Below are positions 8,137-54,997 of a stretch of 64,000 bases of DNA, one piece after another. Under the pieces are notes generated by a model that was not told where the DNA came from, searched no databases, and saw only the letters and a list, made by a program, of their open reading frames with translations. This DNA comes from Candidatus Latescibacterota bacterium (GTDB taxonomy: Bacteria; Latescibacterota; UBA2968; UBA8231). How positions within the stretch are numbered: position 1 is the stretch's first letter; each line of letters opens with the position of its first letter. Position numbers and translations under genes: made by a program. The stretch is taken from contig OZ242214.1 of assembly GCA_965206595.1 (NCBI GenBank), forward strand, positions 3,680,001 to 3,744,000. Reading direction: 5' to 3'.

Positions 8137-8206
8137 GATCCCTCCCTATTGCACGAAGGTCCTTCCGCCCTTTTGACTAGAGCGGCTGAAATGCCGCGGT
8201 CTATAC

Positions 8207-20460: not shown

Positions 20461-20699
20461 TGCCGTGTACATTGGACCAATCCTCCGCAAGGGTTCTCAG
20501 CCGAGCGCACCCGAACCGGCCGCCGCACCTGTGGCCAAGACCATTTCGGCGCCTACGGCGGGGGGCTATTTCAATTAGATTGGCGGCGGGAGGGTTCAGG
20601 ACAATCAGCGGCAAACAGCCAAACAGGTGGCCGCCGGCCAATTCAACCGAGTTGGGGCGGCGGCGCCCTGGCGAACCCCGAGGAAGGCCGAACGAGAAC

Positions 20700-21305: not shown

Positions 21306-21352
21306 AGGGTTGAGGGAGGAAGGCGATGGACTCACAGGATGGGAACTGAACG

Positions 21353-37089: not shown

Positions 37090-38507
37090 CACGGTTTCCG
37101 CTGCTCGTAGTACTGCTCGAGTTGCTTCACGGCTCTGTGATTCGGCTTGAGTCTGCGCGCGGCCTCGAGGGCTCGCTTCGCGCACGTCCAGTCCTCGAGA
37201 TCTACGCAGAGGGTCCCGAGGCTGACGTGGATGGGGAGGGTGTAATTTTGCGGAGTGAGCCGGAGAAGATCTTCTAGTGCAGCTCGCGCCCCGGTTCGGT
37301 CTTCGAGCCGGAGGCACGCCTGGGCGAGGAACTGATGGAAACCGGGGCGGCTGTTGTCGAGACCGATGGCGGTTTCCAGAGACTCGCGCGCCGGGGCGAA
37401 CTCTCCCATGAACAGGAGCGCCTTGCCACGCTCGAAGTGAGCTTGCGCGATCTGGGGCGCTCTGTCGATGGCGGCGTCCGCGGCTGCGAGCGCCTGCGGA
37501 TACAGCTTCAGCGAGCTGAGGCAATCCGCCTTGTTGATGTATATCCCGAACGCGCCCGGGTGAAACTCAAGGCCCGCATCGAGGATGGCGAGGGCCTCTC
37601 GAGGGCGTTTCACCCGGCGATACGCCACCGCGAGGTTGTTCATGACCATCAAGTCCTGCGGCCGCTCCTGGTACATTCTCTCCAGGACGACGATGGCCTC
37701 TGCGGGTTTGCCGGCGCGGAGGAGTCCCACCGCGTGATCGAGCCGTGTGCTGTAGCCGCGGGAATAGCGCTCCAGGTCGCTGCTCGTGCGGTCGGGTATG
37801 TAGGACTTCTCGGCATCCTCGCCTCGAGCCTGGGCGCGATCCGCATCCTCGGTGCGACCCATGCGCCGGTAAGCGCGCCCGACGAGAAACGCCGCCATTT
37901 TGTGGCCTGGTTGGAGGGAGAGGGCGTGCTCCAGAGCAGTGATGGCAGCGGCATAGTCGCGACGCTCGAGAGCGACACGGCCGAGACCGACATGACCCTC
38001 CGGGGACTTCCCGTGCAGCGCTACGGCGCGCCGGAACGCTGCATCCGCCCCATCGATGTCGCCAGACTCGATCAGCAGGTCCCCGAGATGGTGCTGGGCG
38101 GGAGCAAAGCCTGGGAATCTCTTCACCACCGCATGCATGGCGGCTACGGCGCCGTCGAAATCGCCCAGATTCTGCGTGGCGCGGGCGGCATGGTAAGCCC
38201 AGACGGATTCCCGGGGGGCGAGCAACGCCGCCGCTTCGAAACACTGACGGGCCTGTTGCCAGAGCACGTTTGCCTCGAAAACCAGGCCGAGCTGGCCCAA
38301 CTTCTCCGCATCCGATGGGTCTTCGCGTACCCTCTCGAGGTGATCATCCACCAGGGAACGGATCTCGGCATCGAGATTCCGGGGAATCGCGAGGTCCGGA
38401 AGCGTTGGCTGAGGCCCGCAGCTGCAGCACGCCAGGACCCAGCAGAGCGCCCAGCGCGCCACCAGCGGGCTCGTGACACGTTGCTCGTCCATTTCTCCGG
38501 CGTTCAT
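37089..38507 (-). CDS. TPR-repeat (lipo)protein
   Basis: Signal/lipobox ACCSC followed by many tandem TPR helical hairpins; translationally coupled to the CRTAC1 gene. Confidence 0.85.
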   Translation of the reverse strand: MNAGEMDEQRVTSPLVARWALCWVLACCSCGPQPTLPDLAIPRNLDAEIRSLVDDHLERVREDPSDAEKLGQLGLVFEANVLWQQARQCFEAAALLAPRESVWAYHAARATQNLGDFDGAVAAMHAVVKRFPGFAPAQHHLGDLLIESGDIDGADAAFRRAVALHGKSPEGHVGLGRVALERRDYAAAITALEHALSLQPGHKMAAFLVGRAYRRMGRTEDADRAQARGEDAEKSYIPDRTSSDLERYSRGYSTRLDHAVGLLRAGKPAEAIVVLERMYQERPQDLMVMNNLAVAYRRVKRPREALAILDAGLEFHPGAFGIYINKADCLSSLKLYPQALAAADAAIDRAPQIAQAHFERGKALLFMGEFAPARESLETAIGLDNSRPGFHQFLAQACLRLEDRTGARAALEDLLRLTPQNYTLPIHVSLGTLCVDLEDWTCAKRALEAARRLKPNHRAVKQLEQYYEQRKP

Positions 38508-39034
38508 TCTCAATGTCTGAAGGATCGGACAACCTCGCAGGCTGGAGAAATAGTACACAGATATGACAGCCCGACCAACAGCACCTGATGGACAGAGTGC
38601 AGCCGCCAGCGTATTGCACCTGCCGGCCGACGACTGTGTAAAGTCACCTCAAACCTGGACTTGCGGCCGCAAGTGTTCGTCAGCGTGGTGGCGGCCTTTA
38701 GGAAGCCGACGGCTGCACAGGGGACCGACATGAAAAAATGGGCTACTTTCGTCAGCGTCCTTCCCGCATGGTTTGCGCGCAAAATGGCATAGTCCAAGGC
38801 GCTGGTCCCGTGGTTCTGAGGAGTCTGTCAGACTATAAAGGCTACTAAAGTGGTAACACGAGGCTACGCCCATAACAGCCCCTTGAAAAAGCCCATCCGG
38901 GCTGCGGCCGGCTTTGGCGTTCGAATACGGCGTTGCGCCTTGTCTTCGACCGCCATGACTCGGCCTCGCCTGCAGAGCAACTTCATCAGCGGGCTTATAT
39001 GCAGCGACGGAGGTCAGGGGGGAGACCACTGAGT

Positions 39035-41002
39035 TTGTCAAGGGGAACAGAGAAGCGGTCGACGCCGGGGGTGACGCCGCGCTCGTTGGTCATCGGAGCA
39101 GGACTCAGTCTGTTGATCGGTGTGGGCGAACCCTACGGTGCGCGTGTCATAGTGGGCAGCCATTTGAGCTCATTGAATGGCCCCGCCGCTTTCTTTCTGT
39201 TCTTCCTGTGGGTGGGTGTTGTCCAGGTACTGTTGGGGGTCATTCACCGGAGGCTGGTCCTGGGCAAGGGGGAGTTGTTGACCATTTACATCATGATGGT
39301 CATCGCTACGGCTTTCTCGGGGGGAGAGCGCAACGGATTCTGCTTCATGCTGTTGGGGTCCGCTGCCGGGGTATTTTACCTGGCCACGCCGGAGAACGGG
39401 TGGGCGGAGCGGGTTCATCCCTACGTGGCGGAATGGATGGTCCCTCGCGATGAGACGGGGATCCGGTGGTTCTTCGAAGGCTTGCCGGTTGGCGAGTCCA
39501 TTCCCTGGGGCATGTGGTTGCCGCCGCTGTTCTGGTGGTTCGTGTTCATGGTGGCGTTGTGGATGACAAGCATCTGCACGATGGTGATTCTCCGTCGCCA
39601 GTGGGTGGAACACGAACATCTGATCTACCCGATCACCAAAGTCCCCCTGGCGATGGTAGAGCCACCATCCGGCGGTTCGTTGGTGGCGCCTTTTTTCAAG
39701 AGCCCCCTGATGTGGGTGGGACTGCTGCTGACGTTTGGCCGCGAAAGCCTCAATGCCTTGAACCATTACTACCCCTTCGTTCCCGTGATTCCGAGACACC
39801 TGGGAACCGTGACACTGTTACGGGGCGTCGCGAGTGTAGGCTTCTCGCTGAATCTGATGATCCTGGGGTTTGCGTATTTCCTCAAACCGGACGTGACGTT
39901 CGGGATGTGGGTATTCACTCTGCTGCGGCGCCTGGAGGAGGGTGTGCTCATCTTCACGGGACAGGGCATTGGGGAATCTCTTTCCAACTATGGCGGCGGC
40001 GGCGGCGTAACGGGATTGCTGGCGCATCAGAGCATAGGTGCCATGACCGCGCTGGTGCTCTTCGGGCTCTGGATTGCCCGGGAGCACCTGCGGAAGGTGT
40101 TCCGCAAGGCGTTCAGGGGGGACCCGTCGGTGGACGATTCCGACGAGATCATTTCCTACCGCACCGCCGTCTGGGGGGTGATCCTCGGAGTGGTCGGGAT
40201 GAGCGTGTGGCTGTGGCGTGCGGGCTTGCCCTTGTGGGTAGGGCCGCTGTTTCTGTTCGGAGCGCTGGTAACCTTCATCAGCCTGACGCGCATCATCGCC
40301 GAGGCGGGCTTGCCGATGGTGTTTCCGCGCAATATCCCCCTGGACTTCGTGATCTCGGGGATCGGGGCGCGGTATATAGGGCCTGCCGGGATAGCGGCGT
40401 TGGGTCCGACGGTGATCTGGACGGAATCCCTGGCGAGCACGATGATGGCGCATAGCGCCACGGGATTGAAGTTGACCGGGGAGATCGGGCATCGCAAGCG
40501 CTGGTTGTTGCTTGCGATTGCGATCGCTATTGGGGTTTCTGCGGTCAGTACGTTCTGGATGTCGATGTCGATAGCCTATCGGGAGGGGAGCATCAATGTA
40601 GATGGTCCCGTGCGCTATCTGCCCCAGTATACCTGGGAGTATGTGGGGAGCAGGATCGACGAGAATGCGGGACCGAACGGGCTGGGCTGGCTCATCCGGC
40701 TGATGGGAGGCGGAGTGATGGCTGGTCTGCTGATCTTGCAACGTCGCTTTCTGTGGTGGCCGTTACATCCCCTGGGCTTCGTGGTCAGCATGGACAGGGT
40801 GATGGACACGGCCTGGTTTCCGGTCTTTGTGGCCTGGTTGATCAAGTCGGTCCTCCTGAAGTATGGTGGCCTCAAAGTTTATCGCTCGCTCATCCCTCTT
40901 TTCTACGGGTTGATCCTGGGTCAGTTCGTGTCCGGGGGATTCTGGCTTATCGTGGATTATTTCACCGGGATGAAGGGTAATCAAATAGCGATGGACTTCT
41001 AG
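39035..41002 (+). CDS. DUF6785/DUF6784-type polytopic membrane protein (putative transporter), copy 1
   Basis: ELLTIYIMM, PWGMWLPPL..W, ILRRQWVEHEHLIYP, RIIAEAG, WWPLHPLG and LKYGG motifs. TTG start aligned to the paralog at 51578-53545. Confidence 0.8.
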   Translation: MSRGTEKRSTPGVTPRSLVIGAGLSLLIGVGEPYGARVIVGSHLSSLNGPAAFFLFFLWVGVVQVLLGVIHRRLVLGKGELLTIYIMMVIATAFSGGERNGFCFMLLGSAAGVFYLATPENGWAERVHPYVAEWMVPRDETGIRWFFEGLPVGESIPWGMWLPPLFWWFVFMVALWMTSICTMVILRRQWVEHEHLIYPITKVPLAMVEPPSGGSLVAPFFKSPLMWVGLLLTFGRESLNALNHYYPFVPVIPRHLGTVTLLRGVASVGFSLNLMILGFAYFLKPDVTFGMWVFTLLRRLEEGVLIFTGQGIGESLSNYGGGGGVTGLLAHQSIGAMTALVLFGLWIAREHLRKVFRKAFRGDPSVDDSDEIISYRTAVWGVILGVVGMSVWLWRAGLPLWVGPLFLFGALVTFISLTRIIAEAGLPMVFPRNIPLDFVISGIGARYIGPAGIAALGPTVIWTESLASTMMAHSATGLKLTGEIGHRKRWLLLAIAIAIGVSAVSTFWMSMSIAYREGSINVDGPVRYLPQYTWEYVGSRIDENAGPNGLGWLIRLMGGGVMAGLLILQRRFLWWPLHPLGFVVSMDRVMDTAWFPVFVAWLIKSVLLKYGGLKVYRSLIPLFYGLILGQFVSGGFWLIVDYFTGMKGNQIAMDF

Positions 41003-41101: not shown

Positions 41102-42272
41102 ATGAAAATCGAATCGATCGACTTCCAGATCCTCGAAAGCGATCCCGTTGAACCGGAGTGGCGTCCACTGCGGACGATGCGGGAGTATCCGGGGTCAACC
41201 AAGGTGCGGTTCGGGCATCGGCTGTTCAGCGGGGACGGGATCCGCTTGGAGCCCAGGCCGGCTTACACGTGTCTGCTCCGGATCCGAACCGATGCGAATC
41301 TCGAGACCATCGGATCCTTCTCCTCGGGCTGGGGGAAAGAGGATCTGGAGTGGAAGGCGCGTACGTTCAAGGTCCAGTGGGAGTCGGAGCTCGTCGGGCA
41401 GGATGCACTGAATCGCGAGTACATGTGGCACAAAATGTGGATGGCCCGCCGGTACTTTCATATGACATCGACAGATCCTCTCGCTTTGATCGACACCCTT
41501 TTGTGGGATCTGGCGGGGCTCCACGCCAGGTTGCCTGTCCACAAGCTGCTCGGTGGATTTCGCGACCGTGTCCCGGCCTATCTCACCGAAACGGGCCATC
41601 CCCTACGAAGACACGCTGAAGTCGGCTCAACGGGCAGTGGACGAGGGTTACAAGGGGTTCAAGGACCACTCGATGCTGGGCGTCGAAACAAACCTCGCCC
41701 TCGCCAGGGACATCCGCAGTCTGGTCGGCAACGAGATGGCATTAATGCACGATCCCGTCCAGCAATACACCGTTGAAGATGCCATCAAAGTGTCGCGCGG
41801 GTTGGAAGAGCTGGGGTACATATGGATCGAAGAGCCCCTGCAGGAGTTCGACATCAACGGGCTGAAACGTCTTTCCGACGCGGTTGATCTACCGGTGATG
41901 GCGCTCGAATCGATACATGGAAATCCCTACCTGGCGACGCCCTATCTTGTGGCGGGAGCGATCGATATCGTGCGGAATACCGGGCTCGGGATCACCGGCA
42001 AGATGAAGCTCGCGAATCTTGCAGAGATGTTCGGACTGAATGTCCACGGTGGAGGGGCGCAGGTTGTGGCCGCGACTCGAAACGACGACTGGTGGGAAGT
42101 GGGGGCGTGGCTGCCGACGGTTGCTGACCGGTCGATTTCTGCGGCATTTGCTGGCCTGATACGGGAAACTACGGAGGTCAGGGACGGCTATATGTATGTG
42201 CCGCAGACGCCTGGTTTGGGGCGGGAGATAGACTGGGCGCAGATTGAGGCGAGGACCATCATGAAGGTTTGA
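41102..42272 (+). pseudogene. Mandelate racemase-like enolase, one frameshift (possibly sequencing error)
   Basis: IDTLLWDLAG...PVHKLLGGFRDRVPAY, then a +1 base at ~41593-41598 and GFKDH, MHDP, IEEP, LES, PGLG. Confidence 0.8.
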
Positions 42273-44593: not shown

Positions 44594-46765
44594 TCAGCGC
44601 GGCAGTCGCTCTATACTGTCCTGGCCCTCCGTGATGAGGATCGACTGATCCACCGCCACATCGCGGAAGGTCTGTAACCGATCGCTCGTCGGCCAGTACA
44701 CCTCCAGCACCTCCACCTGCGTCGCCTTTCCGAGCCCGATCATCTGCATGAACGGGTTGCCCCCGAAGCTGCTGCCGCTGTTCACGTGCCGGTAGACTGA
44801 GCGACGCTTCCCGCCCTCCCGGATCTCGCAGCGGATACGCGCCCCGATCCCGGGCCGATTTGACTGTACGCCCCGCAGCCTGACCCTGATCCAGTGGTTG
44901 TCGAAGCCTGGATTCTCGAACAACGCGTTGCCGTACATGTCGCCGGGATAGGCGCCCCCCAATTGCATGTAGACGTCCTGGTCACCGTCGTAGTCGAGGT
45001 CTGCGAAGGCCACCCCATGGCCCTTCTGCAGGTGGCCGAACCCGCCCGCCATCGTCACGTCCGCAAAGCCCCTCCCGCCGAGGTTGCGGTACATCACATT
45101 CGGCATCAGGGCCTCGTATCCCGGGTAGCCCGTGCCCTGGTAGAAGTCCAGGTACCCGTCGTTGTCCAGATCGCCGAAGTTGCAGCCCATCGTCAGCGTC
45201 AGCAAGGTCAGGCCCTGCTCGGCCGCAACCTCCCGAAAGCCCCCCTTGCCGTCACCGCGGTAAAGGCACGCCAGCTCCCCTCCGTGCTCCAACCCGAGGT
45301 AGCTGGCCGCGAGGAAGTCCAGGGACTCTGCGTAGGTCGCGACCCAAAGATCCAGGGCGCCGTCGTTGTCGAAGTCCCAGAACCAGGGCATGAAGCTGGT
45401 GTGGCGTGCCAAGACGTTCAGCTTCCCGGCGACGTCCGTGAAGGTCCCATCGCCGTTGTTGTGATAGAGCCTGTTCACTCCGAACATGTTTGAGACGTAA
45501 AGATCCGGGAAGCGATCGCCATCGTAATCGCCCCAGATCACGCCCTTGGTGTAGCGCTCGTTCAGCACGCCCGCTTCTCTGGCCACGTCGACGAACGTTC
45601 CATCGCCTTCGTTGCGGAAGAGCTGGCACGGAGCGGAGAAATCCGGGTCGGTCTCGTTGCCCACGTACAGATCCAGGTCGCCATCGTTGTCGTAATCGGC
45701 CCACGACGCGGTCTGGGTGGGATAGTTGACCGCGGCCAGACCGGCGTCGAAGGTCACGTCGGTGAAAGTGCCGTCGCCGTTGTTCCTCAACAGGGAGTTG
45801 GGTGTCGCGCCCGCCCTGCCCAGCCAGGCTCCGCGCAGAACCAGGATGTCCGGGAACCCGTCGTTGTTGTAATCGGTGTGGTTCAGGTTGAGACCGCCGA
45901 ACAGACCCACCAGGCCGGCTTCTTGCGTGCGCTCGGTGAACGTCTTGTCCGGGTTGCCTTCGAAGTAGCGCATCTGTCCGGAAGGATCAGAGGTCGAGCA
46001 CACGATGTCGAGCCAGCCGTCGCCATTGAAGTCGTCGACGGCGCTGCCTCCGGCGAGGTCGAATGCGTTCAACCCGAGCCCGGGCGCGATGTCCGTGAAG
46101 CGTGGAAAAGGCTCATCGGAGGCAAAGGTATCGGGCGAAATCAGAAACTGCTCGGGAACCCCGTCGGGGTACTCCCCGATCGTCATGTTGGCAATGTTTA
46201 GCAGCCAGCGAGCCCCGTGCGCCCCCGGGAACCTCCCGAGATACTCCTCCAGGAGCTCGATCGCCTTGCGGGAGCTTTCCTGGTTTTGGTACACCCCCTT
46301 CCCGCGGATGGGAAGGATGCAGCTGTCGCTCGTATGCATACCCACGCAGTTCTGGGTCTCCCCCAGGCGCAGGTAGACGATGGCGAGCTCCAGGATGTTC
46401 AGGTAGAGCGCCTTGTTCTTGATACTACGGGCGCGGATCAACTCGAGAGCCTCGCTATAGAGCCTTATCGCCGCATCGATATTCCCGAGCCGTGACTCCT
46501 CGCTGGCCAGGCCCCGCAACACCGGCCAGCGAAGACGCGGCTCCGCGCCAGCCAGGCGAGCGAGCTGACGGCGCAACGCCGGCGCCTGGAACTGTCCAAC
46601 CCTGTTGTCGAGCAGCGACCTCCTGTCGGCCTCCCTGGCCAGGAGCGCAATCATCTTCTCATGCCCGGCGACTCCGGATTTCTCGCACGACACCACCAGC
46701 GTGGCGCAGGCGAGAATCAGCAGAGCACCGGCAAGATTTGGGAGCTGTTGAAGAAGAGCGATCAT
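44594..46765 (-). CDS. CRTAC1-family lipoprotein with N-terminal TPR-like region
   Basis: Lipobox VVSC; LGETQNC...SCILPI; FG-GAP repeats (DFNGDGWLD, DYDNDGDLD); GFGHLQKGHGV; ASPIC/UnbV end (SGSSFGGNP...GLG). Confidence 0.88.
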   Translation of the reverse strand: MIALLQQLPNLAGALLILACATLVVSCEKSGVAGHEKMIALLAREADRRSLLDNRVGQFQAPALRRQLARLAGAEPRLRWPVLRGLASEESRLGNIDAAIRLYSEALELIRARSIKNKALYLNILELAIVYLRLGETQNCVGMHTSDSCILPIRGKGVYQNQESSRKAIELLEEYLGRFPGAHGARWLLNIANMTIGEYPDGVPEQFLISPDTFASDEPFPRFTDIAPGLGLNAFDLAGGSAVDDFNGDGWLDIVCSTSDPSGQMRYFEGNPDKTFTERTQEAGLVGLFGGLNLNHTDYNNDGFPDILVLRGAWLGRAGATPNSLLRNNGDGTFTDVTFDAGLAAVNYPTQTASWADYDNDGDLDLYVGNETDPDFSAPCQLFRNEGDGTFVDVAREAGVLNERYTKGVIWGDYDGDRFPDLYVSNMFGVNRLYHNNGDGTFTDVAGKLNVLARHTSFMPWFWDFDNDGALDLWVATYAESLDFLAASYLGLEHGGELACLYRGDGKGGFREVAAEQGLTLLTLTMGCNFGDLDNDGYLDFYQGTGYPGYEALMPNVMYRNLGGRGFADVTMAGGFGHLQKGHGVAFADLDYDGDQDVYMQLGGAYPGDMYGNALFENPGFDNHWIRVRLRGVQSNRPGIGARIRCEIREGGKRRSVYRHVNSGSSFGGNPFMQMIGLGKATQVEVLEVYWPTSDRLQTFRDVAVDQSILITEGQDSIERLPR

Positions 46766-47039
46766 GTCAAGGGCTATCCAATCGCCGCCCGACGACGTTC
46801 CTCGACGACGAACTACGAGCTCCGGAGAGTCATGGGAAACGCGGACGTGAACGACGTCCTCACCCCGAAAAGTTAGAGTGCGAGTAATTACGCGAACAGC
46901 TCTATGGAGGCACAGTACACCCGGGATGGTTGTGCACGAGGCGTTGGGGAAGCGACACCGTTCGATCTCTACCCGTCGAAGATGCGCCAGTTGGGCAGTC
47001 TTGCCGAGATGCTCTACCAATCTCTCGACGCTGCAACAG

Positions 47040-48698
47040 TCATTGCTGATTGCCACTGATTGTCACCCTGCCCGTGAACCCACTTGCCACCAGTTTATCG
47101 GCGAAAGCCCGAGCTGACGAATCGGTCAGCCCTCCGCTGCCGTGGATGGACAAGTCGCCGCCGATGTGGGTGAGATTCTCAAGGCCTGCCAAGCTGGCCA
47201 GGGCGGTGTTGCCGGTACGGCGATCGCCGATAGATAGACTACCGCCGATGTCTGTGAGACTTTCGAGCCCTGCCAGGCTGATCAGTGCATCATTGCCGCC
47301 AATCGACAGGTCTGCGCCAATGTTGGTGAGGTTCCCGAGCCCTTCCAGGCTCGTCAGATCGGTGTACCAGATGGACAGACCCCCGCCGATGCTGGTGACG
47401 CTCTCGAACCCTGCCAGGTTGGTCAGCAAGTAATTTCCGCTGATTTTCAAATCGCCGGCGACTCGGGCGACATTCCCGAGCGGTGCCAAGCTGGCCAGCG
47501 CATTGTTGTGCAATATCTGCAGCAACCCGTCGATGCGGGTGATATTGTCGAGTCCTGTCAGACTGCTCAGGGCGGAGTTGTTGGCGAGAGACAGGAATCC
47601 GCCGACGCTGGTGAGGGTCTCGAGCCCTGCCAGGCTGGTCAGCGCGGGATTGCCGGTAAGCCAGACTCCACCGATGCCGGCGACGTTCTCGAGCCCTGAA
47701 AGGCTGGTCAGCGCGGCGCTGCTGAATACAGACAGGAATCCGCCGATGCGGGTTAGATTCTCGAGCCCTGACAGGCTGGCCAATGCGGGGTTGTGGGAGA
47801 TGGTCAAACTCCCGCCGACGTCAGTGAGATTCCCGAGCCCTGACAGGCTGGTCAACGCAGTGTTGCCGTCACGCACCTTGCCGATGCACAAGTCCCCGCC
47901 GATGCGGGTGAGATTTTCGAACCCCGCCAAGTTGGCAAGTGCATCATTGTCCAGGATCGAAACGCCTGGACCCGTCCGGGATGCTCGGTCAAACGCGTCC
48001 CCGTCGATGCTCGTGATCTTTTCGAGCCCTGACAGGCTGGTCAGCGCGGGGTTGTAGTGGATTATCAGGTCGCCCCCGAAGCCGGTGAGGTTCTTGAGCC
48101 CTGTCAGGCTGGTCAGGGAATCATTGCCGACGATGGACAGGAATCCGCCGATGCGGGTCAGATTGTCGAGCCCCGCCAGGCTGGTCAGGGCATCATTGTT
48201 GACGGCGTTAACAGCCCCGCCGATGCTGGAGGCATTTTCGAGCCCTGACAGGCTGGTCAGGGAGGTGTTCCTGATGAACAAACCCCCGCCGATGCTGGTG
48301 ACACCCTCGAGCCCTGACAGGCTGGTCAAAGCGGCGTTGCCGAATACGGACAGGTACCCGCCGATGCGGGTGAGATTCTGGAGACCAGCCAGACTGGTCA
48401 GCTCCGCGTTGCCGGCACCGAAGCTGCCTATGGACAGGTTCCCGCCGATGCGGGTGAGATTCTCGAGGGCTTCAAGTGTGGTGAAGGGAGAATCCTCGAC
48501 CGAGAGATCGCCGGTGATGCGGAACGAACCCCCTCCGAGGGCCACGGGGAGGTCCAGATCCTCCTGGGAACGGAGGGAAAAATCTCCCTCCAGGACCGTG
48601 GAGTCAGAGCCGGATTGAGTTGGGCTTTTGTTGTCACAGCCGGCCAACCCCAACACCGACAACACCACACAGGGCAAGAGCCGTTTCGGACATTTCAT
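47040..48698 (-). CDS. Receptor L-domain-type leucine-rich repeat lipoprotein
   Basis: Lipobox LAGC; about 19 repeats of ~25 aa, consensus NxALTSLxGLENLTxIGGxLxI, visible as ~75-bp DNA repeats. Confidence 0.85.
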   Translation of the reverse strand: MKCPKRLLPCVVLSVLGLAGCDNKSPTQSGSDSTVLEGDFSLRSQEDLDLPVALGGGSFRITGDLSVEDSPFTTLEALENLTRIGGNLSIGSFGAGNAELTSLAGLQNLTRIGGYLSVFGNAALTSLSGLEGVTSIGGGLFIRNTSLTSLSGLENASSIGGAVNAVNNDALTSLAGLDNLTRIGGFLSIVGNDSLTSLTGLKNLTGFGGDLIIHYNPALTSLSGLEKITSIDGDAFDRASRTGPGVSILDNDALANLAGFENLTRIGGDLCIGKVRDGNTALTSLSGLGNLTDVGGSLTISHNPALASLSGLENLTRIGGFLSVFSSAALTSLSGLENVAGIGGVWLTGNPALTSLAGLETLTSVGGFLSLANNSALSSLTGLDNITRIDGLLQILHNNALASLAPLGNVARVAGDLKISGNYLLTNLAGFESVTSIGGGLSIWYTDLTSLEGLGNLTNIGADLSIGGNDALISLAGLESLTDIGGSLSIGDRRTGNTALASLAGLENLTHIGGDLSIHGSGGLTDSSARAFADKLVASGFTGRVTISGNQQ

Positions 48699-48815: not shown

Positions 48816-48849
48816 CGATAGTGTCGTGTCCCTGAGAACGACACTATCG
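48816..48849. terminator. Perfect 12-bp inverted repeat downstream of DUF3179 copy 1
   Basis: CGATAGTGTCGT-N10-ACGACACTATCG. No clear U-tract, so it may be a MITE remnant rather than a terminator. Confidence 0.5.
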
Positions 48850-48866: not shown

Positions 48867-49559
48867 CTACGGGATCGTGAGAACCTTTGAATCCGGAAAC
48901 TCCGCTTTCCAAAGGTTCCAGCGGGTGAGGACGGAGTGGAGTTCCGTCAGCTTCCGGTCGGCGTAGGTGCCGCTGATACAGGTCAGGCCGTCCTCGCCGG
49001 GCAGGTGGTACCACAGGCTTTCGGTCTCGTAGTCGTACAGCACGAACGTGGATCGATAGGTCCATCCACTGGCGCTCAGGGTCAGGATCTCTCCGTCGAT
49101 TTCTCGGCTGTACACGGCAGCCAGGTTGACCAGCGGTCAGTAGGCCACGGCCACGTGCGCCTCCCCGAATTGCTCGTTGGCGACTTCGAACCGGCTCAGG
49201 ATTTCGATGGGGTACGCGCGGGTGAAACCGTTCAGGCTCGTCCCGATCACGAGAATACCCTGGCTGTCGAGCGGGTAATTCAGGTCGCCGGGGGACAGCA
49301 TCCTGGCGTTGATTATCGGTTTGATGGCAAAAGGCCCCAGACCGTTCCCGAACATGGATGGCTCCATGCCGTATTTCCGCGCAGCGTGGGTCACGTCCCA
49401 GGACTTGCCGGTTACGTCGTGGATGAAAACCTCACCTTCCTCCCCCTGCCCCTGGTCGACCGAAGAAGGCGGCGGGGAGGTGTGGACCACATCGCTGCCG
49501 CAACCACTCGAAAGCAGGGCCCAGAACCCGAAAAGAACGGCTGTGATCGCAAGTCTCAT
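48867..49559 (-). CDS. DUF3179-domain selenoprotein (lipoprotein; Sec at TGA 49139-49137)
   Basis: ORFs 49137..49586 and 48867..49115 are in one frame separated only by TGA: RAYPIEILSRFEVANEQFGEAHVAVAY-U-PLVNLAAVYSR...SGW...VLYDYETESLW...WKAEFPDSKVL. The TGA sits at the DUF3179 Y-C-P-L cysteine. Lipobox SSGC. Confidence 0.82.
49103..49124 (-). promoter_or_regulatory. Putative bacterial SECIS hairpin (copy 1)
   Basis: CUGGCUG-CCGUGUA-CAGCCGAG starts 12 nt after the UGA and is identical in the paralog. Confidence 0.6.
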
Positions 49560-49679
49560 CACGCAAATCTCTTCACATTGTCCCAAGGTGAAACAGTCAG
49601 AACGCTTACTGGTCTCACTGGTTCGGTTCTGCGCATGAACCTGGTGTCCGCAGTGCTGTCCTCTTGCCGTGGCAGGGCG

Positions 49680-50594
49680 CTAAGAGCGCACCAAGACGAA
49701 ACCCAGAGCGAACGTGGTGCCGCTGAGCGTGTTCTTGCCCGCAAGGACATGAAAGACATCCGCCTGCAATAGCAGGCCCGGCTTCAAAGAGTAGATGAGG
49801 GCCGGATTGACCTTGGCGATATGCTGGTCGCCGACGACGAGAGAAGGCAACACTCCGCCACCGCCGGGCAGAGGGGTCACCACGGTCCGGCCGTAAATAT
49901 CCGGCGGAGCGCTCCTGTTCTCTACCCCGTCGAGCCCCACCTTGAAAAGGAGCCGGTCGGCTGTGTACCCCGCTTCGACCGCGTAGAGGATCTCGTCGTG
50001 CAGTCGCCCGCCGCGACCACGGTATCCCAGAGCGGCGGAGAGATAGAGCGGCAAGGGGTAGAGGCTTTTTCCAGCCAGTACGTGGAGTTCGCCATCCACT
50101 TCGCCAGTGCCCAGGGGAGGGCCGTCGTTCGACGGCGAATTGTCGTAACCCAGGGGCATCTTAGTGCCGCCCTGCAGGGAGAGAGCCAGAGGAGAAACGA
50201 GCAGTGCATAACGCAGGGACAGGCTCAGATCGGCAAAACCGTTGGTGTGAACGATTTCTCTGAATCGCACAACGCCGCCGCCGATGAGCCCGGTGCGTGA
50301 CGAGCGCAGGGCTTTGTACTGCAGGTTGGATACGACGGTGACGCGGTCGCCCAAGCCGTATTCCAGATAGGTGGTCAGATTTAAGTCGAGGAAAGAGCCG
50401 TCGGTGAAACCCGCGTGCTCCTCGAACAGGTCCATGCGCACGCCGCGGTAGTTGAATTCCCTGGTGGTGGACAGGTAACTGGACGAGAGCTTGAGGTAGT
50501 ATGCTCTTTTACTCTGCACCCAGGCGCCGGACCGCACACTGTCGCTGCTGCCTATGAGAATCAGGAGAACGACAGAGGCTCTTGCCCTGAGCAT
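49680..50594 (-). CDS. Putative outer-membrane beta-barrel protein
   Basis: Signal peptide followed by GAW; YLEYGL, GFADLSLSLRY, PLGY, LGTGEVD; alternating hydrophobic strands to the C-terminus. Confidence 0.65.
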   Translation of the reverse strand: MLRARASVVLLILIGSSDSVRSGAWVQSKRAYYLKLSSSYLSTTREFNYRGVRMDLFEEHAGFTDGSFLDLNLTTYLEYGLGDRVTVVSNLQYKALRSSRTGLIGGGVVRFREIVHTNGFADLSLSLRYALLVSPLALSLQGGTKMPLGYDNSPSNDGPPLGTGEVDGELHVLAGKSLYPLPLYLSAALGYRGRGGRLHDEILYAVEAGYTADRLLFKVGLDGVENRSAPPDIYGRTVVTPLPGGGGVLPSLVVGDQHIAKVNPALIYSLKPGLLLQADVFHVLAGKNTLSGTTFALGFVLVRS

Positions 50595-50600
50595 TACGGA

Positions 50601-50768
50601 CTAGTGTCCCTTCGCAGAGATGGATTGACAAAATCGGGACGCCGAGGCGCCCGGCTCACAAGGCGCCTGAGCGAGTCGTACCGAGGGTGTACGGCGAGCG
50701 AAGGCAACGCCGTGAGCCGGGATGGATCGGCGTTCCGATGGCGACATATTTCTGCGACGGGACACTAG
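50601..50768. mobile_element. 168-bp palindromic MITE/REP-like element
   Basis: Terminal inverted repeats CTAGTGTCCC(T/G)TCGCAGA(G/A)AT; nested internal arms ATCGGGACGCCGA/TCGGCGTTCCGAT, CCGGCTCAC/GTGAGCCGG and CGTAC/GTACG; no coding capacity. Confidence 0.7.
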
Positions 50769-51443
50769 AGCTCGAGGATCTTTGAAGCCGGAAAGTCCGC
50801 CTTCCAGCGGTTCCAGCGCGTAAGGGTGCTCCCGAATTGTGGCAGCCTCCGGTCGGCGTAGGTACCGCTGATGCAGGTCAGCCCGTCACTGCCCTGCAGA
50901 TGGTACCACATGCTTTCGGTCTCGAAGTCGTAGAGCACGAAGGTGTTGCGATAGGTCCACCCGCTGGCGCCCAGGGTCAGGATCTCTTCGTCGATTTCTC
51001 GGCTGTACACGGCAGCCAGGTTGGCCAGCGGTCAGTAGGCCACAGCCACGTGCGCGTCCCCGAATTGCTCGTTGGCCACTTCCTTCCAGCGCATGATGTA
51101 GATGGGGTAGGCGCGGGTGAAACCGTTGAGGTTGACCCCTATCACGAGAAAATCGTCGTCGTCGGACGGGTAGCCCTCATCGCCGGGCGAAAGCATCCGT
51201 GGGTTCAGGATGGGCCTGATGAAATGTATCCCCAAACCGTGTGCAAAACGCTCGGGAACCATGCCGTATTTCTACGCGTGGGTCACGTCCCAGGTCTTGG
51301 CCTCGAAGTCCGGTGATGGAGGCCTTTGGAAACTCGGTCCCGTCTCCATCCTGATCGTTCGAAGAAACCGGCTCGGTGGTTGGGTTGTACACGACATCGT
51401 CGCCTCAACCGGTTGAGAACAAGGTCCATAGCCCGAAAAGCAT
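50765..51443 (-). pseudogene. DUF3179-domain selenoprotein copy 2 (Sec TGA 51034-51032), N-terminus disrupted
   Basis: AHVAVAY-U-PLANLAAVYSR as in copy 1. Additional TGA at the lipobox Cys (51407-51405), a frameshift near 51310 and an in-frame TAG (51274-51272). Confidence 0.75.
50998..51019 (-). promoter_or_regulatory. Putative bacterial SECIS hairpin (copy 2)
   Basis: Same 22-nt hairpin and same 12-nt spacing from the UGA as copy 1. Confidence 0.6.
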
Positions 51444-51577: not shown

Positions 51578-53545
51578 TTAATACATCATGCTCAATCCGT
51601 TGCCCATCATCCCGGTGAAATAGTCGACGATCAACCAGAATCCCCCAGCGACGAACTGACCCAGGATCAACCCGTAGAAAACGGGGATGAGCGCCTGATA
51701 CGCTTTGAGGCCGCCGTACTTCAAGATGACCGTCTTGAGCAACCAGGCCAGGAAGACCGGAAACCAGGCCGTGTCCATCACCCGGTCCATGCTGACCACA
51801 AATCCCAGTGGGTGCAAGGGCCACCACAGGAATCGGCGCTGCATGAGAAGCAGACCAGTCATCACCCCTCCCCCTATCAACCGGATGAGCCAACCCAGCC
51901 CGTTCGGTCCCGCGTCCTCCTCGACCCGGCTCCCCACGTACGCCCAGGTGAAGTCGGGCAGGTACCCAACGGAACGCGCTACGTTGATGCCTCCCTCGCG
52001 ATAGGCTATCGACAGCGACATCCAGAAGGTGCTGACTACAGAAATCAGGATGGCTATCGCCAGCGCCAGCAGCAGCCAGCGCTTGCGATAGGCGATTTCA
52101 CCGGTCAGCTTCAACCCGGTGGCGGTGTGCGCCATCATCGTGCTCGCCAGGGACTCCGTCCATATCACCGTCGGACCCAGCGCCGCCATCCCCGCCGGCC
52201 CTATGTAGCGCACCCCGATTCCGGAGACCACGAAGTCCAGGGGGATGTTGCGGGGAAACACCATGGGCAGTCCCGCCTCGGCGATGATGCGCGTCAGGCT
52301 GACGAAAGTCACCAGCGCCCCGAACAGAAACAGCAGACCCGCCCACAGGGGCAAACCTGCCCGCCACAACCACAGGTTCATAACGATCACGCCGAGAATC
52401 ACCCCCCATACGGCGCTGCGGTAGGACATGATCTCGTCGGAATCGTCCACGGACGCGTCGCCTCTGAAGGCCTTGCGGAACACCGCACGCAGATGCCCCC
52501 GGGCTATCCACAGTCCAAAGAGGACCAGCGCCACCATCGCACCGATGCTCTGATGGGCCAGCAAGCCCCTCACACCGCCGCCACCGCCATAGTTGGACAG
52601 AGCTTCCCCGATGCCCGCTCCCGTCAGGTGCAGGACACCCTCCTCCAGGCGCCTCAGGAAATAGAACACCCACATCCCGAACATGACGTCTGCCTTGAGG
52701 AAATACGCGAACCCCAGGATCATCAGGTTCACCGAGAATCCGACATTCGCGAATCGCGGTATCAGCGTGAGTTGCCCGAAGTGGGTCGGAATCACGGGAA
52801 CGATGGGGAAGTAGTGGTGCAAGGCGTTGAGGCTCTCGCGACCGAACGACAGCGACATACCCACCCACATCAGACCGCTCTTGAAGAAAGGAGCCACCAG
52901 CGAACCGCCCGACGGCGGCTGCACTATGGCAAGCGGCACTTTGGTGATTGGATAGATGAGATGCTCGTGCTCCACCCACTGGCGGCGAAGGATGACCATG
53001 GCGCAGATGCTCGCCATCCACAACGCCACCATGAACACCAACCACCACAACAGCGGCGGCAACCACATGCCCCAGGGGATGGACTCGCCCTCCGGTATGC
53101 CCTCGAAAAACCACCGGATCCCCAGCTCGTCCTGCGGGACCATCCACTCCGCCACGTAGGGATGGACCCGCTCTGCCCAGTTGTTTTCCGGAGTGGCCAG
53201 GTAGTACACCCCGGCCGCGGATCCCAGCAGCATCATGCAGAACCCGTTGCGTTCGCCACCCGAGAAGGCCGTGGATACGACCATCATGATGTAGATGGTC
53301 AGCAGCTCTCCCTTGTCCAGGACCAGCCTCCGGTGGATGAGTGCCAACACAACCTGGACGACACCCACCCACAGGAAGAACAGGAAGAACGCGGCGGGAC
53401 CATTCAACCCGCTCATGCGGGTGCCCATGATGACGAAGGCACCGAAGGGCTCTCCCACGCCGATCGCCAGACTGAGTGCGGCGCCGATGACGAGCGCGCG
53501 CAGCGAAACCCCAGAGGCTGACCGGTCCTCTATACTCCCTGACAA
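51578..53545 (-). CDS. DUF6785/DUF6784-type polytopic membrane protein, copy 2
   Basis: Colinear and highly similar to 39035-41002, with long identical peptides such as AGLPMVFPRNIPLDFV and GPTVIWTESLASTMMAH. Confidence 0.85.
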   Translation of the reverse strand: MSGSIEDRSASGVSLRALVIGAALSLAIGVGEPFGAFVIMGTRMSGLNGPAAFFLFFLWVGVVQVVLALIHRRLVLDKGELLTIYIMMVVSTAFSGGERNGFCMMLLGSAAGVYYLATPENNWAERVHPYVAEWMVPQDELGIRWFFEGIPEGESIPWGMWLPPLLWWLVFMVALWMASICAMVILRRQWVEHEHLIYPITKVPLAIVQPPSGGSLVAPFFKSGLMWVGMSLSFGRESLNALHHYFPIVPVIPTHFGQLTLIPRFANVGFSVNLMILGFAYFLKADVMFGMWVFYFLRRLEEGVLHLTGAGIGEALSNYGGGGGVRGLLAHQSIGAMVALVLFGLWIARGHLRAVFRKAFRGDASVDDSDEIMSYRSAVWGVILGVIVMNLWLWRAGLPLWAGLLFLFGALVTFVSLTRIIAEAGLPMVFPRNIPLDFVVSGIGVRYIGPAGMAALGPTVIWTESLASTMMAHTATGLKLTGEIAYRKRWLLLALAIAILISVVSTFWMSLSIAYREGGINVARSVGYLPDFTWAYVGSRVEEDAGPNGLGWLIRLIGGGVMTGLLLMQRRFLWWPLHPLGFVVSMDRVMDTAWFPVFLAWLLKTVILKYGGLKAYQALIPVFYGLILGQFVAGGFWLIVDYFTGMMGNGLSMMY

Positions 53546-53683: not shown

Positions 53684-54919
53684 CTACTCTATCTCCTCGA
53701 AAGTGAACGGATACACCACCACTACATCGGTCAACGGGGGACGTCGCTGAGGTCTTGAGGGTTCCTCCCGGCGCGATTCAGCCCCCGATCCTGGCTCGCC
53801 AGCCCGCGCGGTGCTCTGTTGAGAGGGCCCGGCCTGCTGTGCGTACTGTCCGGCGGGTTGGAACTGCCAGCGCTGCACTTCTGCCACAATACAGACGCCC
53901 ACCTGCGCATTCATTACCGTGGACTTGGTCACGCTCACCGCCTCGACCACGCCGTTCACACGAATCGTGAATTGAACCTCCACCACGCCCTCGACTGCCT
54001 CTCCCTGGTCAAACGCCTCGGAAAAACATCGCCGCAGATCCGCGAGGTTGTGATCGACGATCGAATTGATCGCGCCCGTGTTCCGGGCAAGATCCCCCTG
54101 CTGGTTGCCGCGGATCTGGCGGGGGCCCCGGATAACCACCCGCGTCGTCTCCGTGGGCACTCGCTCTTCCAACTCCTCCTCCGCGATCACTTCCTTGCTG
54201 ACCATACGGCTGAAGTCAAACGGGAGGTCTATGGTCTCGATCGGGTGCCCCGACGCGTCGAACTTGAGCGCGAATTCCTTGAGAATCAGACGCACGTTGC
54301 GCACCTTGGGATGGAGGGGATCGAACACGACAAGCCCGCTGTAGTTCTCCCCTTTGAAAATCACCTCGTCTTCTCCATAGGCGGTCGCGCGCACGATCCC
54401 TATCCGTTTGGAAAAGCGATAGTGCTCGTTCCCGCTGATGCCGCGCAAGCCCCGGTAGTACCCCTCCAAGCTTTTGCGATCAGCCACCGGGGCGATCGTG
54501 TACGATTCCAGATAGCCTCCCCGGTCCGTCAACAGGATGACCTTCAGTGGATCCAACTGCATCTTGGCGTAGGTGTAGTTGTACACCGCGATGTTGAACA
54601 CGGTGAATCGATTCCGCACATACCCCACGTTCGGATCCATCCAATCCCCGTAGGTGTAGGGGTTGGTCGAAAGCTCTCCTCCTTTCGAATCGTCGGGAAA
54701 CATCTCGTTCAGCGCCGGATCGGTCATGTACTGCACATCTATCCGGGAGCCTTCCAGGTGGTAGGAGACTACTCCGTCATCCCCTATCGAATATTCCTCC
54801 CGCTCCGACTCCTTCGGGTCGAGGACGGAACGGTACTCGACTCGCGGCACCGAAAGGCACGCGGCCAGAAAAATCGGGGCCATCAGCATTGCGAAACGCA
54901 GGACACGGTTATTTAGCAT
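53684..54919 (-). CDS. Lipoprotein with C-terminal AgmX/PglI (TonB_C-like) domain
   Basis: Lipobox LAAC; C-terminal LRRCF...EGVVEVQFTIRVNGVV...STVMNAQVGVCIVAEVQRWQF...VVYPFTF. Confidence 0.8.
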   Translation of the reverse strand: MLNNRVLRFAMLMAPIFLAACLSVPRVEYRSVLDPKESEREEYSIGDDGVVSYHLEGSRIDVQYMTDPALNEMFPDDSKGGELSTNPYTYGDWMDPNVGYVRNRFTVFNIAVYNYTYAKMQLDPLKVILLTDRGGYLESYTIAPVADRKSLEGYYRGLRGISGNEHYRFSKRIGIVRATAYGEDEVIFKGENYSGLVVFDPLHPKVRNVRLILKEFALKFDASGHPIETIDLPFDFSRMVSKEVIAEEELEERVPTETTRVVIRGPRQIRGNQQGDLARNTGAINSIVDHNLADLRRCFSEAFDQGEAVEGVVEVQFTIRVNGVVEAVSVTKSTVMNAQVGVCIVAEVQRWQFQPAGQYAQQAGPSQQSTARAGEPGSGAESRREEPSRPQRRPPLTDVVVVYPFTFEEIE

Positions 54920-54997
54920 CAGTTCCAACTCCTCCAGCAATCGACTCGCGCCGCCGCATTCCCCGTATACGCGCAGCGTGGAGAGCTATGATCAGGA

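Follow-up and report, generated by a model that had tools for sequence, protein, structure and literature searches.

The locus and its genes

The 64-kb stretch of DNA analysed here (the window) holds two copies of a short gene of the DUF3179 family which bracket, as the initial annotation had described, a gene whose product was modelled as an outer-membrane barrel (Table 1). In both copies a TGA follows the residues VAVAY and is itself followed in frame by PL(V/A)NLAAVYSREID, and both read-through proteins match the Pfam family PF11376 (DUF3179) against a cut-off of 27 bits, copy 1 with 116.3 bits (E 2e-33) and copy 2 with 127.8 bits, a score above that of copy 1. The window short forms cover positions 7-148 of the 292 in this profile. 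A promoter/terminator scan returned no promoter-like sites, and four terminator-like sites versus 2.8 expected.

Table 1. Features of the DUF3179 locus, with window coordinates and the basis of each assignment
Feature	Position	Strand	Details or basis
Copy 1, intact short-form DUF3179 gene	48867..49559	minus	230 codons, predicted Sec at codon 141; read-through translation
Stop codon of copy 1 (TAG)	48867-48869	minus	
SECIS-like hairpin, copy 1	49105..49123	minus	Covariation, RNAalifold, codon entropy
In-frame TGA of copy 1, predicted Sec141 codon	49137-49139	minus	TGA/Cys column in homologs
Predicted signal peptide and lipobox of copy 1, MRLAITAVLFGFWALLSSG-C	49500..49559	minus	Cys column conservation and model
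Cys20 codon (TGC) of copy 1	49500-49502	minus	
Outer-membrane beta-barrel gene (predicted), 304 aa, signal peptide	49680..50594	minus	Model and fold comparison
Copy 2, short-form DUF3179 gene, best read as a pseudogene	50765..51443	minus	Comparison with intact orthologs
SECIS-like hairpin, copy 2, identical to copy 1	51000..51018	minus	
In-frame TGA of copy 2, same column as copy 1	51032-51034	minus	
5' lesion region of copy 2 versus intact orthologs	51272..51443	minus	Three-frame translation and DNA alignment

The N-terminus of the copy 1 product is of the lipoprotein type that had been proposed for it. The cysteine of its lipobox is shared by 55 of 57 aligned sequences that have a residue in that column, and in the AlphaFold2 model a helix (residues 2-16) leads into a flexible, low-confidence tether (residues 17-43). 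Judged by the lipobox and the lipidation it predicts, the protein is presumably lipid-anchored in the cell envelope. The model as a whole has a pLDDT of 91.2 and is continuous across the TGA position, with values of 97-98 over residues 130-150, where a strand formed by residues 134-141 stops at the Sec. The modelled fold is all-beta and not thioredoxin-like; no solved relative was found in the PDB by sequence, profile or fold (best Foldseek E 0.18), and a search of the ESM Atlas with the Cys homolog P0023 returned DUF3179 clusters only.

The barrel protein was modelled with a pLDDT of 83.8 and resembles, in fold comparison, two 12-strand outer-membrane barrels, FapF of amyloid secretion (5o65/5o67; E 1e-9, TM 0.62-0.66) and the COG4313 channel (4rl8; E 1e-8, TM 0.61-0.69). 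While the predicted fold is shared with these barrels (TM 0.6-0.69), sequence identity to them is 13-15%, and a Gly-rich loop conserved in the protein from the window, PLPGGGGV, was modelled at low confidence. No Pfam family, PF13557 included, matched the protein at E up to 0.001, and no NCBIfam model did; PF13557 is precomputed in 2 of the 120 barrel homologs listed. The literature and database searches made found no lipoprotein partner for either 4rl8 or FapF.

Where the initial annotation had counted two selenoproteins, copy 2 is best read as a pseudogene, a decayed duplicate. Three-frame translation against the orthologs P0040, P0042 and P0044, and DNA alignment against the first, intact copy at locus L003, located four lesions in its 5' part, upstream of the region on which the earlier comparison had been based: a 26-nt gap in which the ortholog ATG and first codons are gone (junction at about 51442/51443), a TGA at the lipobox Cys codon (51405-51407), an extra G in ACC-G-GAC (about 51311-51314) that produces a +1 frameshift, and a CAG to TAG change (51272-51274). 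From MVPERF (51262) on, the 3' two-thirds of the copy are intact, including the TGA and the hairpin. This good conservation, the Pfam score and the retention of the TGA with an identical hairpin would suit a copy 2 that is also a working selenoprotein, its lesions being assembly errors or its expression starting at the internal ATG of MVPERF to give a signal-less protein; an enolase-superfamily gene of the window (41102-42272) is likewise split by a frameshift, so that assembly indel errors are possible. We consider such a working copy improbable, however, as the four lesions are independent and fall within about 170 nt, two of them being substitutions to stop codons and one a deletion that removes the start, while a product starting at MVPERF would be devoid of signal peptide, lipobox and the conserved N-terminal strand-helix (D48, W54, H58). 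The second copy is, moreover, dispensable in close relatives, with a single copy in L001 and L002.

The TGA column and the hairpin behind it

The codon at the TGA column was compared across 81 captured genes, comprising 79 from 80 related loci and the two in the window. It is TGA in 80 of them and TGT in one, the second copy in locus L028, and in none is it TAA or TAG. Among the tblastn matches, 52 of 54 have exactly one in-frame stop, which is always the column TGA, and in 52 of 54 genes the 89 codons downstream stay in frame and are free of stops and indels; R152, W166, Y168, D176, W183, W214 and W217 are invariant across phyla in this downstream part. The UGA and the reading frame behind it are conserved in at least five phylum-level groups. 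The homolog alignment also contains the Cys/TGA pairs that the initial annotation had pointed to as a test of its reading, as the column holds Cys in nine of the 15 database homologs of full length (the others being four W, one T and one Q), in addition to the gene with TGT. One close homolog with Thr and one with Gln indicate that Sec or Cys at this position is not indispensable.

TGA serves as the stop codon of 16 of the 33 Pfam-supported genes in the window, and thus the genetic code is not reassigned. Coding potential is high to either side of the TGA in both copies (0.73/0.74 and 0.63/0.66), which ranks them as the top two among all in-frame TGAs in the window, and the comparative data far exceed chance. 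Other selenoprotein candidates among the in-frame TGAs of the window proved to be antisense frames of known genes or, at 63702, two genes abutting in frame. Pairwise comparison of copies 1 and 2 with L001-L003 gave dN/dS values of about 0.4-0.6 on either side of the TGA; these pairs are too closely related to be discriminating, and the downstream comparison for L003b is out of register through a one-codon indel.

Both copies carry the same SECIS-like hairpin, UGGCUG-CCGUGUA-CAGCCG, within a stretch after the TGA that is near-identical between them (one difference in 44 nt). It begins 14 nt past the A of the UGA, the initial annotation having drawn a 22-nt version that begins 12 nt past the TGA, and is made up of a 6-bp stem (U.G, G-C, G-C, C-G, U-A, G-C) and the loop CCGUGUA, which is almost invariant across phyla. 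In a gapless alignment of 80 sequences, 98.3% of 480 cells are paired, versus 17-55% in slid controls, and none of 500 shuffles reached the observed values. Changes occur on both sides of four of the six pairs, with compensatory switches from G-C to A-U in 14 sequences, from C-G to G-C in three, and from U-A to C-G and G-C to U-A in one each. The same helix was found independently by RNAalifold, with no lower stem detectable in the consensus. The freeze in synonymous codon choice coincides exactly with the hairpin, where codon entropy is about 0.1 bit versus 1.6-1.9 bits elsewhere and codons +5 to +10 after the TGA are restricted to about one codon each (GCU 60/61, GCC 69/70, GUG 79/80, UAC 73/75). 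Together with the compensatory changes, this bears out the earlier suggestion of selection at the RNA level.

Folding of the post-UGA region as a single sequence gave z-scores of -0.39 and -0.60, no better than shuffles, indicating that the hairpin is too small for a thermodynamic signal and is visible by comparative data alone. No Rfam family reached its gathering threshold anywhere in the window, and the 301 nt from 48950 to 49250 stayed unmatched even when hits up to E 10 were admitted. SECIS elements of the E. coli fdhF type are hairpins within the coding sequence, 3' of the UGA, with G/U in the apical loop. The window hairpin shares with them its location in the coding sequence, a short fixed distance from the UGA and the G/U of the loop, but is much smaller, with 6 bp, a 7-nt loop and no lower stem. 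Its unusually small size, near-invariant loop and clean compensatory changes make it a test case for minimal SelB recognition outside Proteobacteria and Firmicutes.

A short-form DUF3179 subfamily and its gene neighbourhood

DUF3179 comprises more than 8,000 cluster representatives and is, to our knowledge, without a known role. The two copies were called hidden selenoproteins in the initial annotation, but the family is not new in this respect, being tabulated as a prokaryotic selenoprotein family with the motif UxxC/T in PMC9312934 and PMC13188914, both of which cite Zhang and Gladyshev 2007 (PMC1976440). With the tabulated selenoproteins the window protein shares the Pfam family, a predicted Sec at the first position of a CxxC-type motif, Cys homologs and a stem-loop after the UGA. 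By its sequence, it is a member of a half-size, single-module lipoprotein subfamily with the motif U-P-L-V/A/I that is found in Latescibacterota, Calditrichota, KSB1 and relatives. This motif sets it apart from the tabulated UxxC/T, although the members in those tables might include short forms, as do its predicted lipoprotein nature and its frequent pairing with a barrel gene.

In canonical long DUF3179 proteins, the column does hold the CxxC that the initial annotation had given for the family, which is present in 53 of 132 domain matches from proteins of at least 280 residues. These relatives (300-450 aa) have two modules, seen as two stretches per protein against PF11376, with the CxxC in the first, whereas the short form, at about 230 aa, has one module and a 45-residue N-terminal extension. 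The second Cys of the CxxC is lost in the short form, which reads U/C-P-L-V/A/I (UPLV and UPLA in the window copies), as had been observed. The cysteine of the GLTC motif (Cys194), proposed as partner of the Sec, is kept in 55 of 64 aligned members but is G or S in the other nine, all of which have Sec; it is thus not an obligate partner, and a selenenylsulfide cycle is not a universal mechanism in the subfamily.

Exported selenoproteins of the thiol:disulfide type are represented in Table 1 of PMC1976440 by the 'thiol-disulfide isomerase-like protein'. The window protein would share with these an extracytoplasmic location and Sec in place of a redox Cys, but they have a thioredoxin fold with CxxU or UxxC, while the window protein is all-beta in its model, has no solved relative and carries a single predicted Sec with no CxxC partner. 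Lipobox-bearing, presumably exported and lipid-anchored selenoproteins are uncommon, and our literature search turned up neither a lipoprotein among described selenoproteins nor a Sec-dependent accessory of an outer-membrane channel.

Of 120 short-form protein matches listed, 103 end exactly at a VAVA[YFW]-type motif and two more, P0036 and P0056, stop at it or a residue earlier; NCBIfam has no model for the DUF3179 short form. With about 105 of these 120 matches ending at the predicted Sec codon, annotation systematically halves the protein and under-counts selenoproteomes, in Latescibacterota, Calditrichota, KSB1, Krumholzibacteriia and neighbouring groups.

The association with the barrel gene proved to be real and conserved. 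A barrel homolog is present in 24 of the 80 related loci and is the immediate neighbour of the DUF3179 gene in 20, in both gene orientations and across phyla; in L001, the locus closest in synteny, both the barrel and a second copy are absent. ArsS (TIGR04167; 437 bits, cut-off 300), encoded by the arsenosugar gene arsS, was found near short DUF3179 genes in eight of 80 loci. Two of these loci have arsS immediately next to the DUF3179 gene, with ArsS fused to an ArsM-type methyltransferase in one of the two; there is no arsS in the window. Five loci encode a DUF255-thioredoxin/DsbD_N protein and a sixth holds a partial match to it; in some loci pyridine-nucleotide-disulfide oxidoreductase genes are found near the short DUF3179 gene. 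We discarded one apparently recurrent neighbour family, as its 17 ORFs lie antisense to the DUF3179 gene itself. The barrel (24/80) and ArsS (8/80) are each minority neighbours of the short DUF3179 genes.

Decoding, function and competing explanations

Taken together, the TGA column, the hairpin, the Cys homologs and the use of TGA as a stop elsewhere in the window support Sec decoding well, and the UGA at codon 141 of copy 1 is most likely decoded as selenocysteine. We think it probable that copy 1 encodes a 230-residue lipoprotein of the short, single-module DUF3179 branch in which UGA141 is read as Sec by means of the hairpin. SelB and Sec-tRNA(Sec) would be recruited by this minimal element 14 nt downstream of the UGA to decode codon 141, and the product would be made as one chain before being exported and lipid-anchored in the envelope. 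Sec141 would then stand at the end of a beta-strand, in the position held by the first Cys of the CxxC in canonical DUF3179.

If the TGAs were instead genuine stops, the genes would be truncated or split, giving a 140-residue lipoprotein and a stretch of 89 codons that is translated on its own or left untranslated, or would be pseudogenes. Most database gene calls do end at the TGA, copy 2 is indeed best read as a pseudogene, and the hairpin loop contains a GTG eight codons past the TGA; even so, this account is scarcely credible in view of the frame and invariant residues preserved downstream across phyla, the restriction of the column stop to TGA with Cys codons and Cys proteins in its place, and an AlphaFold2 model in which the site lies within a single compact domain. 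The GTG has no purine-rich ribosome-binding sequence upstream of it, and the conserved bases there covary as a helix. It is also very unlikely that the UGA is read as a standard amino acid (Trp, Cys or Gly), whether by near-cognate decoding or by hairpin-stimulated read-through without SelB. Such read-through would be compatible with the lack of selA, selB and selD domains among the 46 window ORFs scanned and of any tRNA in the 64-kb window, and with the lack of a tRNA-Sec in the 80 loci, as expected of small genome samples; a literature search for Sec usage by Latescibacteria, Calditrichota and Caldithrix, passages of PMC8318568 included, gave nothing on the Sec trait. A hairpin shorter than the E. 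coli fdhF element and unmatched in Rfam, and the W found at the column in four database homologs, could be taken in the same sense. These W forms, however, come from short metagenomic contigs for which the gene caller may have used table 4, and the replacements are mostly Cys (nine of 15 proteins plus the TGT gene), which is the signature of a Sec/Cys family. A loop so nearly invariant across phyla points to recognition by a specific protein and not to a generic roadblock, and DUF3179 is listed as an accepted selenoprotein family in PMC9312934 and PMC13188914.

The initial annotation had proposed a selenol redox or metal-handling module; for a copy 1 protein with selenocysteine at position 141, we too propose a function tentatively and with considerable doubt. 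Its lone selenol would be the reactive centre, could be backed by Cys194 in most members, and may act on a small soft electrophile that crosses the outer membrane via the neighbouring 12-strand channel, by reducing it, binding it or passing it on. We lean towards the handling of metalloids (arsenic or selenium species), fed by an envelope reducing pathway, because some lineages place the pair beside arsS/arsM and thioredoxin-like/DsbD_N genes. The protein might instead be a plain envelope thiol/selenol oxidoreductase of the peroxide, disulfide or methionine-sulfoxide type, with no metalloid role and with the barrel as a mere frequent neighbour. This would sit well with a Sec at a former CxxC position, with the Cys194 kept in most members, with the thioredoxin-like/DsbD_N and pyridine-nucleotide-disulfide oxidoreductase genes near some loci, and with the statement in PMC1976440 that most bacterial selenoproteins are redox enzymes, yet we hold it to be rather unlikely. 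The modelled fold, which has no solved relative, is unlike that of thioredoxin, nine Sec forms do without Cys194, the barrel adjacency recurs in both orientations across phyla, and ArsS abuts the DUF3179 gene in at least three different arrangements.

A more specific form of the metalloid proposal would be a two-part outer-membrane module, in which a lipid-anchored selenol 'gatekeeper', paired with a FapF/COG4313-like channel, captures or transforms arsenic or selenium species in passage, such as the methylated arsenicals of ArsS/ArsM, with the selenol recharged by an envelope DsbD_N/thioredoxin-like pathway; we regard a module of this kind as unlikely. That short DUF3179 genes recur beside an outer-membrane channel, and beside arsenosugar genes in some lineages, is a concrete, testable lead to the function of DUF3179.

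Conservation of the in-frame TGA

The locus consists of three minus-strand genes in the window, in which two short-form DUF3179 (PF11376) paralogs, copy 1 and copy 2, enclose a gene for a predicted outer-membrane barrel. The read-through products of both copies exceed the Pfam DUF3179 cut-off by a wide margin, with the match limited to profile positions 7-148 of 292. TGA terminates 16 of the 33 Pfam-supported genes of the window (G+C 60.8%) and is thus an ordinary stop codon there. The initial annotation had described an in-frame TGA shared by the two copies and followed by an identical hairpin. This was confirmed: the alignment of the copies is gapless around the TGA, a single base differs over the 44 nt counted from it, and the hairpin (UGGCUG-CCGUGUA-CAGCCG) is the same in both. 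When every in-frame TGA of the window with an open frame on both sides was given a codon-usage score trained on the window's own genes, these two ranked first and second. An inverted repeat, possibly serving as terminator or operator, lies 18 nt beyond the copy 1 stop on the coding strand; it is perfect over 12 bp, with a 10-nt spacer and no T-run.

Features of the window and, where a locus handle is given, of related genomic loci
Feature	Position	Strand	Remark
Copy 1	49559 to 48867	-	230-residue product if TGA is read through
Copy 1 in-frame TGA	49137-49139	-	codon 141
Copy 2 in-frame TGA	51032-51034	-	read-through frame
Copy 2 lesion: 26-nt gap			start codon and first codons lost
Copy 2 lesion: stop	51405-51407	-	lipobox Cys codon to TGA
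Copy 2 lesion: additional G	about 51311-51314	-	frameshift
Copy 2 lesion: stop	51272-51274	-	CAG to TAG
Barrel gene	49680-50594	-	304 codons, between copies
DUF6785/DUF6784 membrane protein	51578-53545	-	flanks locus
DUF6785/DUF6784 paralog	38933-41002	+
LRR lipoprotein	47040-48698		flanks locus, other side
Inverted repeat	48816-48849
AgmX/PglI-domain protein	53684-54940	-	418 aa
MR_MLE gene	41102-42272	+	N domain 41102-41776, C domain 41553-42272
FG-GAP/ASPIC-UnbV proteins	35413-37524, 44594-47056	-
Spermidine-synthase-like pair	29967-32726, 32785-35382	-	about 900 aa each
PhyH-type and WelO5-like genes	20439-22183	+
CHU_C proteins	3-1031, 1041-3107, 8207-11566
L019 DUF3179 gene	8001-8672		additional TAG
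L028 Cys form	9353-9412 region		TGT
824-aa protein beside arsS (L006, L009, L010, L016, L032)	about 11.5-14.1 kb

With the read-through protein as query, a database search listed 120 matches. Of these, 103 have the VAVA[YFW]-type motif as their exact end, and 2 more terminate there or one residue before. The 15 full-length matches carry Cys (9), Trp (4), Thr (1) or Gln (1) at the TGA column, giving the Cys/TGA pairs that the initial annotation had proposed to look for; the Trp forms may reflect TGA translated under table 4 by depositors' gene callers. When 185,579 species genomes were scanned, 108 relatives were obtained; 80 loci were kept and grouped by record title as Calditrichota-type (27), Latescibacterota (12), KSB1 (9), Bacteroidota/Cytophagia-labelled (5), Deferribacteres-labelled (4), Krumholzibacteria-type (3), Gemmatimonadota-type (3), Handelsmanbacteria (1) and unclassified (16). 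Among the 81 genes recovered by a motif-anchored scan (79 from these loci, 2 from the window), the column held TGA in 80, TGT in 1 and TAA or TAG in none; three matches were missed by the motif pattern, among them those of L057 and L064, which have a stop at the site. In 52 of 54 tblastn matches examined there was one in-frame stop each, always the conserved TGA, the exceptions being L019, with an additional TAG, and L072, whose match is out of frame. Within the 89 codons 3' of the TGA, R152, W166, Y168, D176, W183, W214 and W217 are invariant in 64 of 64 aligned sequences. Taken together, these comparisons show, at the level of sequence, that the UGA of short-form DUF3179 genes is translated, and that Cys is the usual natural substitute at the Sec column. 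The additional TAG of L019 (Handelsmanbacteria-labelled) lies in frame 18 codons upstream of the conserved TGA, and this gene is probably another pseudogene of the family.

A SECIS-like hairpin 3' of the UGA

The 80 TGA-bearing sequences, with the single TGT gene excluded, aligned without gaps over positions -6 to +51 relative to the TGA. This revealed a 6-bp helix (columns 23-28 with 36-41) with standard pairs in 98.3% of 480 cells and two-sided changes in four pairs (G-C to A-U, n=14; C-G to G-C, n=3; U-A to C-G, n=1; G-C to U-A, n=1). None of 500 column shuffles matched any of five helix measures, and pairing fell to 17-55% when the partner was slid by 1-3 columns. For a given amino acid, codon choice is nearly free at fourfold sites elsewhere (1.6-1.9 of 2 bits); its entropy drops to about 0.1 bit over codons +6 to +9 (GCU 60/61, GCC 69/70, GUG 79/80, UAC 73/75) and is also lowered at the flanking +5 (Leu) and +10 (Ser), and these six codons coincide exactly with the helix and loop. 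Directly 5' of the UGA, 71 of 73 Tyr codons are UAC. The RNA-level selection suspected from the two copies was thereby borne out, and codon and hairpin are shown to be kept by selection in many lineages.

The folding check suggested in the initial annotation succeeded in part: RNAalifold independently predicted the identical helix, although in single-sequence folding the hairpin was thermodynamically unexceptional. As it also matched no Rfam family, we regard it as a lineage-specific, minimal SECIS-like element, as judged by sequence comparison. We take it to resemble the E. coli-type SECIS in its distance from the UGA and in the G/U of its loop. We hold with high confidence that UGA141 would be decoded as Sec via SelB, with the hairpin serving as the predicted SECIS. 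In L028, the one fetched gene with Cys (TGT) still has a 5-bp hairpin at the equivalent place, a single case that may represent a SECIS left over from before a Sec-to-Cys change.

The short-form protein, the neighbouring barrel gene and arsenic-related genes

Copy 1 begins with a signal peptide and lipobox, whose Cys20 is kept in 55 of the 57 sequences with a residue at that column, and we consider it moderately well supported that the read-through protein would be exported and lipid-anchored. AlphaFold2 with a 64-row alignment gave a confident all-beta model (pLDDT 91.2, pTM 0.80), in which residues 2-16 are helical and followed by a floppy tether, strand 134-141 terminates at Sec141 and Cys194 lies within strand 191-196; no similar solved structure came up in searches by sequence, by profile and by fold. 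Among 1.84 billion cluster representatives, a profile search found 8,291 relatives (E <= 0.001). In long relatives (300-450 aa) the match is split over two stretches, a first module bearing CxxC (53 of 132 domain hits) and a second bearing D/N-xx-S/T, and in short proteins a single module is preceded by a conserved N-terminal extension (D48, W54, D55, H58); 65 of 86 domain hits in short representatives end ahead of the Sec column. CxxC modules alternate with non-Cys modules in two giant DUF3179 proteins, P0124 (1587 aa, six modules) and P0130 (1004 aa, four), a pattern in favour of a repeat unit of two modules in canonical DUF3179. The GLTC cysteine, Cys194, described earlier as conserved, occurs in 55 of the 64 aligned members, with Gly or Ser in its place in nine, all nine of them Sec forms; canonical proteins have Ala or Gly at this column.

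The initial annotation had presented these selenoproteins as hidden, yet DUF3179 is tabulated as a selenoprotein family with the motif UxxC/T in the accessible parts of PMC9312934 and PMC13188914. Both cite the Olavius-symbiont study (PMC1976440), the accessible part of which does not use the name DUF3179, and in that of PMC13188914 the terms 'lipoprotein', 'periplasm', 'extracytoplasmic' and 'signal peptide' are absent. We regard the present form as belonging to a known family, with variant features: it is single-module, with U-P-L-V/A/I, a lipobox and a barrel neighbour. Supplements of the earlier papers could include short forms.

The proposed outer-membrane barrel between the copies agrees with the predicted fold (pLDDT 83.8), which most closely matches FapF (5o65, 5o67) and the COG4313 channel 4rl8 (E 1e-8 to 1e-9, TM 0.6-0.69); the gene is unmatched in Pfam and NCBIfam. 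Among 120 listed of its 191 database relatives (E <= 1e-5), the few source names are all hypothetical and PF13557 is on 2. A homolog occurs in at least 24 of the 80 loci, a lower bound as many loci are short contigs, and is the immediate neighbour of the DUF3179 gene (gap < 400 nt) in 20. It usually lies directly downstream in the same orientation, and in 7 cases it is on the opposite strand and convergent. Clustering of all neighbouring ORFs gave no further broadly recurrent family.

An arsenosugar radical-SAM protein meeting the NCBIfam ArsS model TIGR04167 (437 bits versus a cut-off of 300) is encoded in 8 of 80 loci (L006, L009, L010, L016, L018, L032, L061, L067), downstream of the barrel in five. 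It directly adjoins the DUF3179 gene in two, convergently in L067 and immediately after it in L061, where it is fused to an arsenite-methyltransferase (ArsM-type) domain. The arsS-bearing Latescibacterota and Gemmatimonadota-type loci also encode a protein of 824 aa that combines a DUF255 thioredoxin-like domain with a GH76-like region and, at its C-terminus, a DsbD_N domain. Upstream in L006, L009 and L018 is a gene for a pyridine-nucleotide-disulfide oxidoreductase with fused NapH-like ferredoxin domains; the window has none of these genes. We tentatively propose, with more doubt than conviction, that the selenol might be a reactive or ligand-binding centre for a small molecule crossing the predicted partner channel. 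An envelope thiol-reducing pathway would be a possible electron source, and arsenic or selenium species are the best substrate lead, held with low confidence.

Probable decay of copy 2 and fluidity of the locus

Of the two selenoproteins originally proposed, copy 1 is intact and copy 2 is not: comparison with the intact orthologs P0040, P0042 and P0044, and at the DNA level with the first copy in L003, revealed four 5' lesions, and copy 2 is best read as a pseudogene. It is intact from 51262 on and retains the TGA and hairpin there, so its decay looks recent. The MR_MLE enolase-superfamily gene is likewise divided, into two overlapping ORFs in different frames, reflecting either a frameshift in a pseudogene or an indel in the assembly; this bears on trust in single-base lesions and makes assembly error conceivable for copy 2. 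Two substitutions to stops together with a deletion make such an error unlikely, and we retain the pseudogene reading.

The locus is fluid among the close relatives L001-L003. The order is DUF6785, one DUF3179 gene and LRR in L001; DUF6785, barrel, one DUF3179 gene and LRR in L002; and DUF6785, an FG-GAP/ASPIC gene, two DUF3179 copies and LRR in L003, with no barrel in L001 or L003. The DUF6785/DUF6784 gene, one of two large membrane-protein paralogs in the window, directly precedes the DUF3179 locus, an arrangement kept in L001-L003 and L024. Also kept in L001-L003 is the protein with a C-terminal AgmX/PglI (GltG/GltJ, TonB-C-like) domain, comparable to gliding-motility proteins, and more copies of the FG-GAP/ASPIC-UnbV repeat proteins flank the locus in L002 and L003. 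Elsewhere in the window, three proteins with CHU_C type IX secretion sorting domains fit an FCB-group organism. One of the tandem spermidine-synthase-like proteins has additional MFS-like membrane segments and the other C-terminal TPR repeats, and a PhyH-type dioxygenase gene adjoins one for a WelO5-like 2OG-Fe(II) halogenase/oxygenase.
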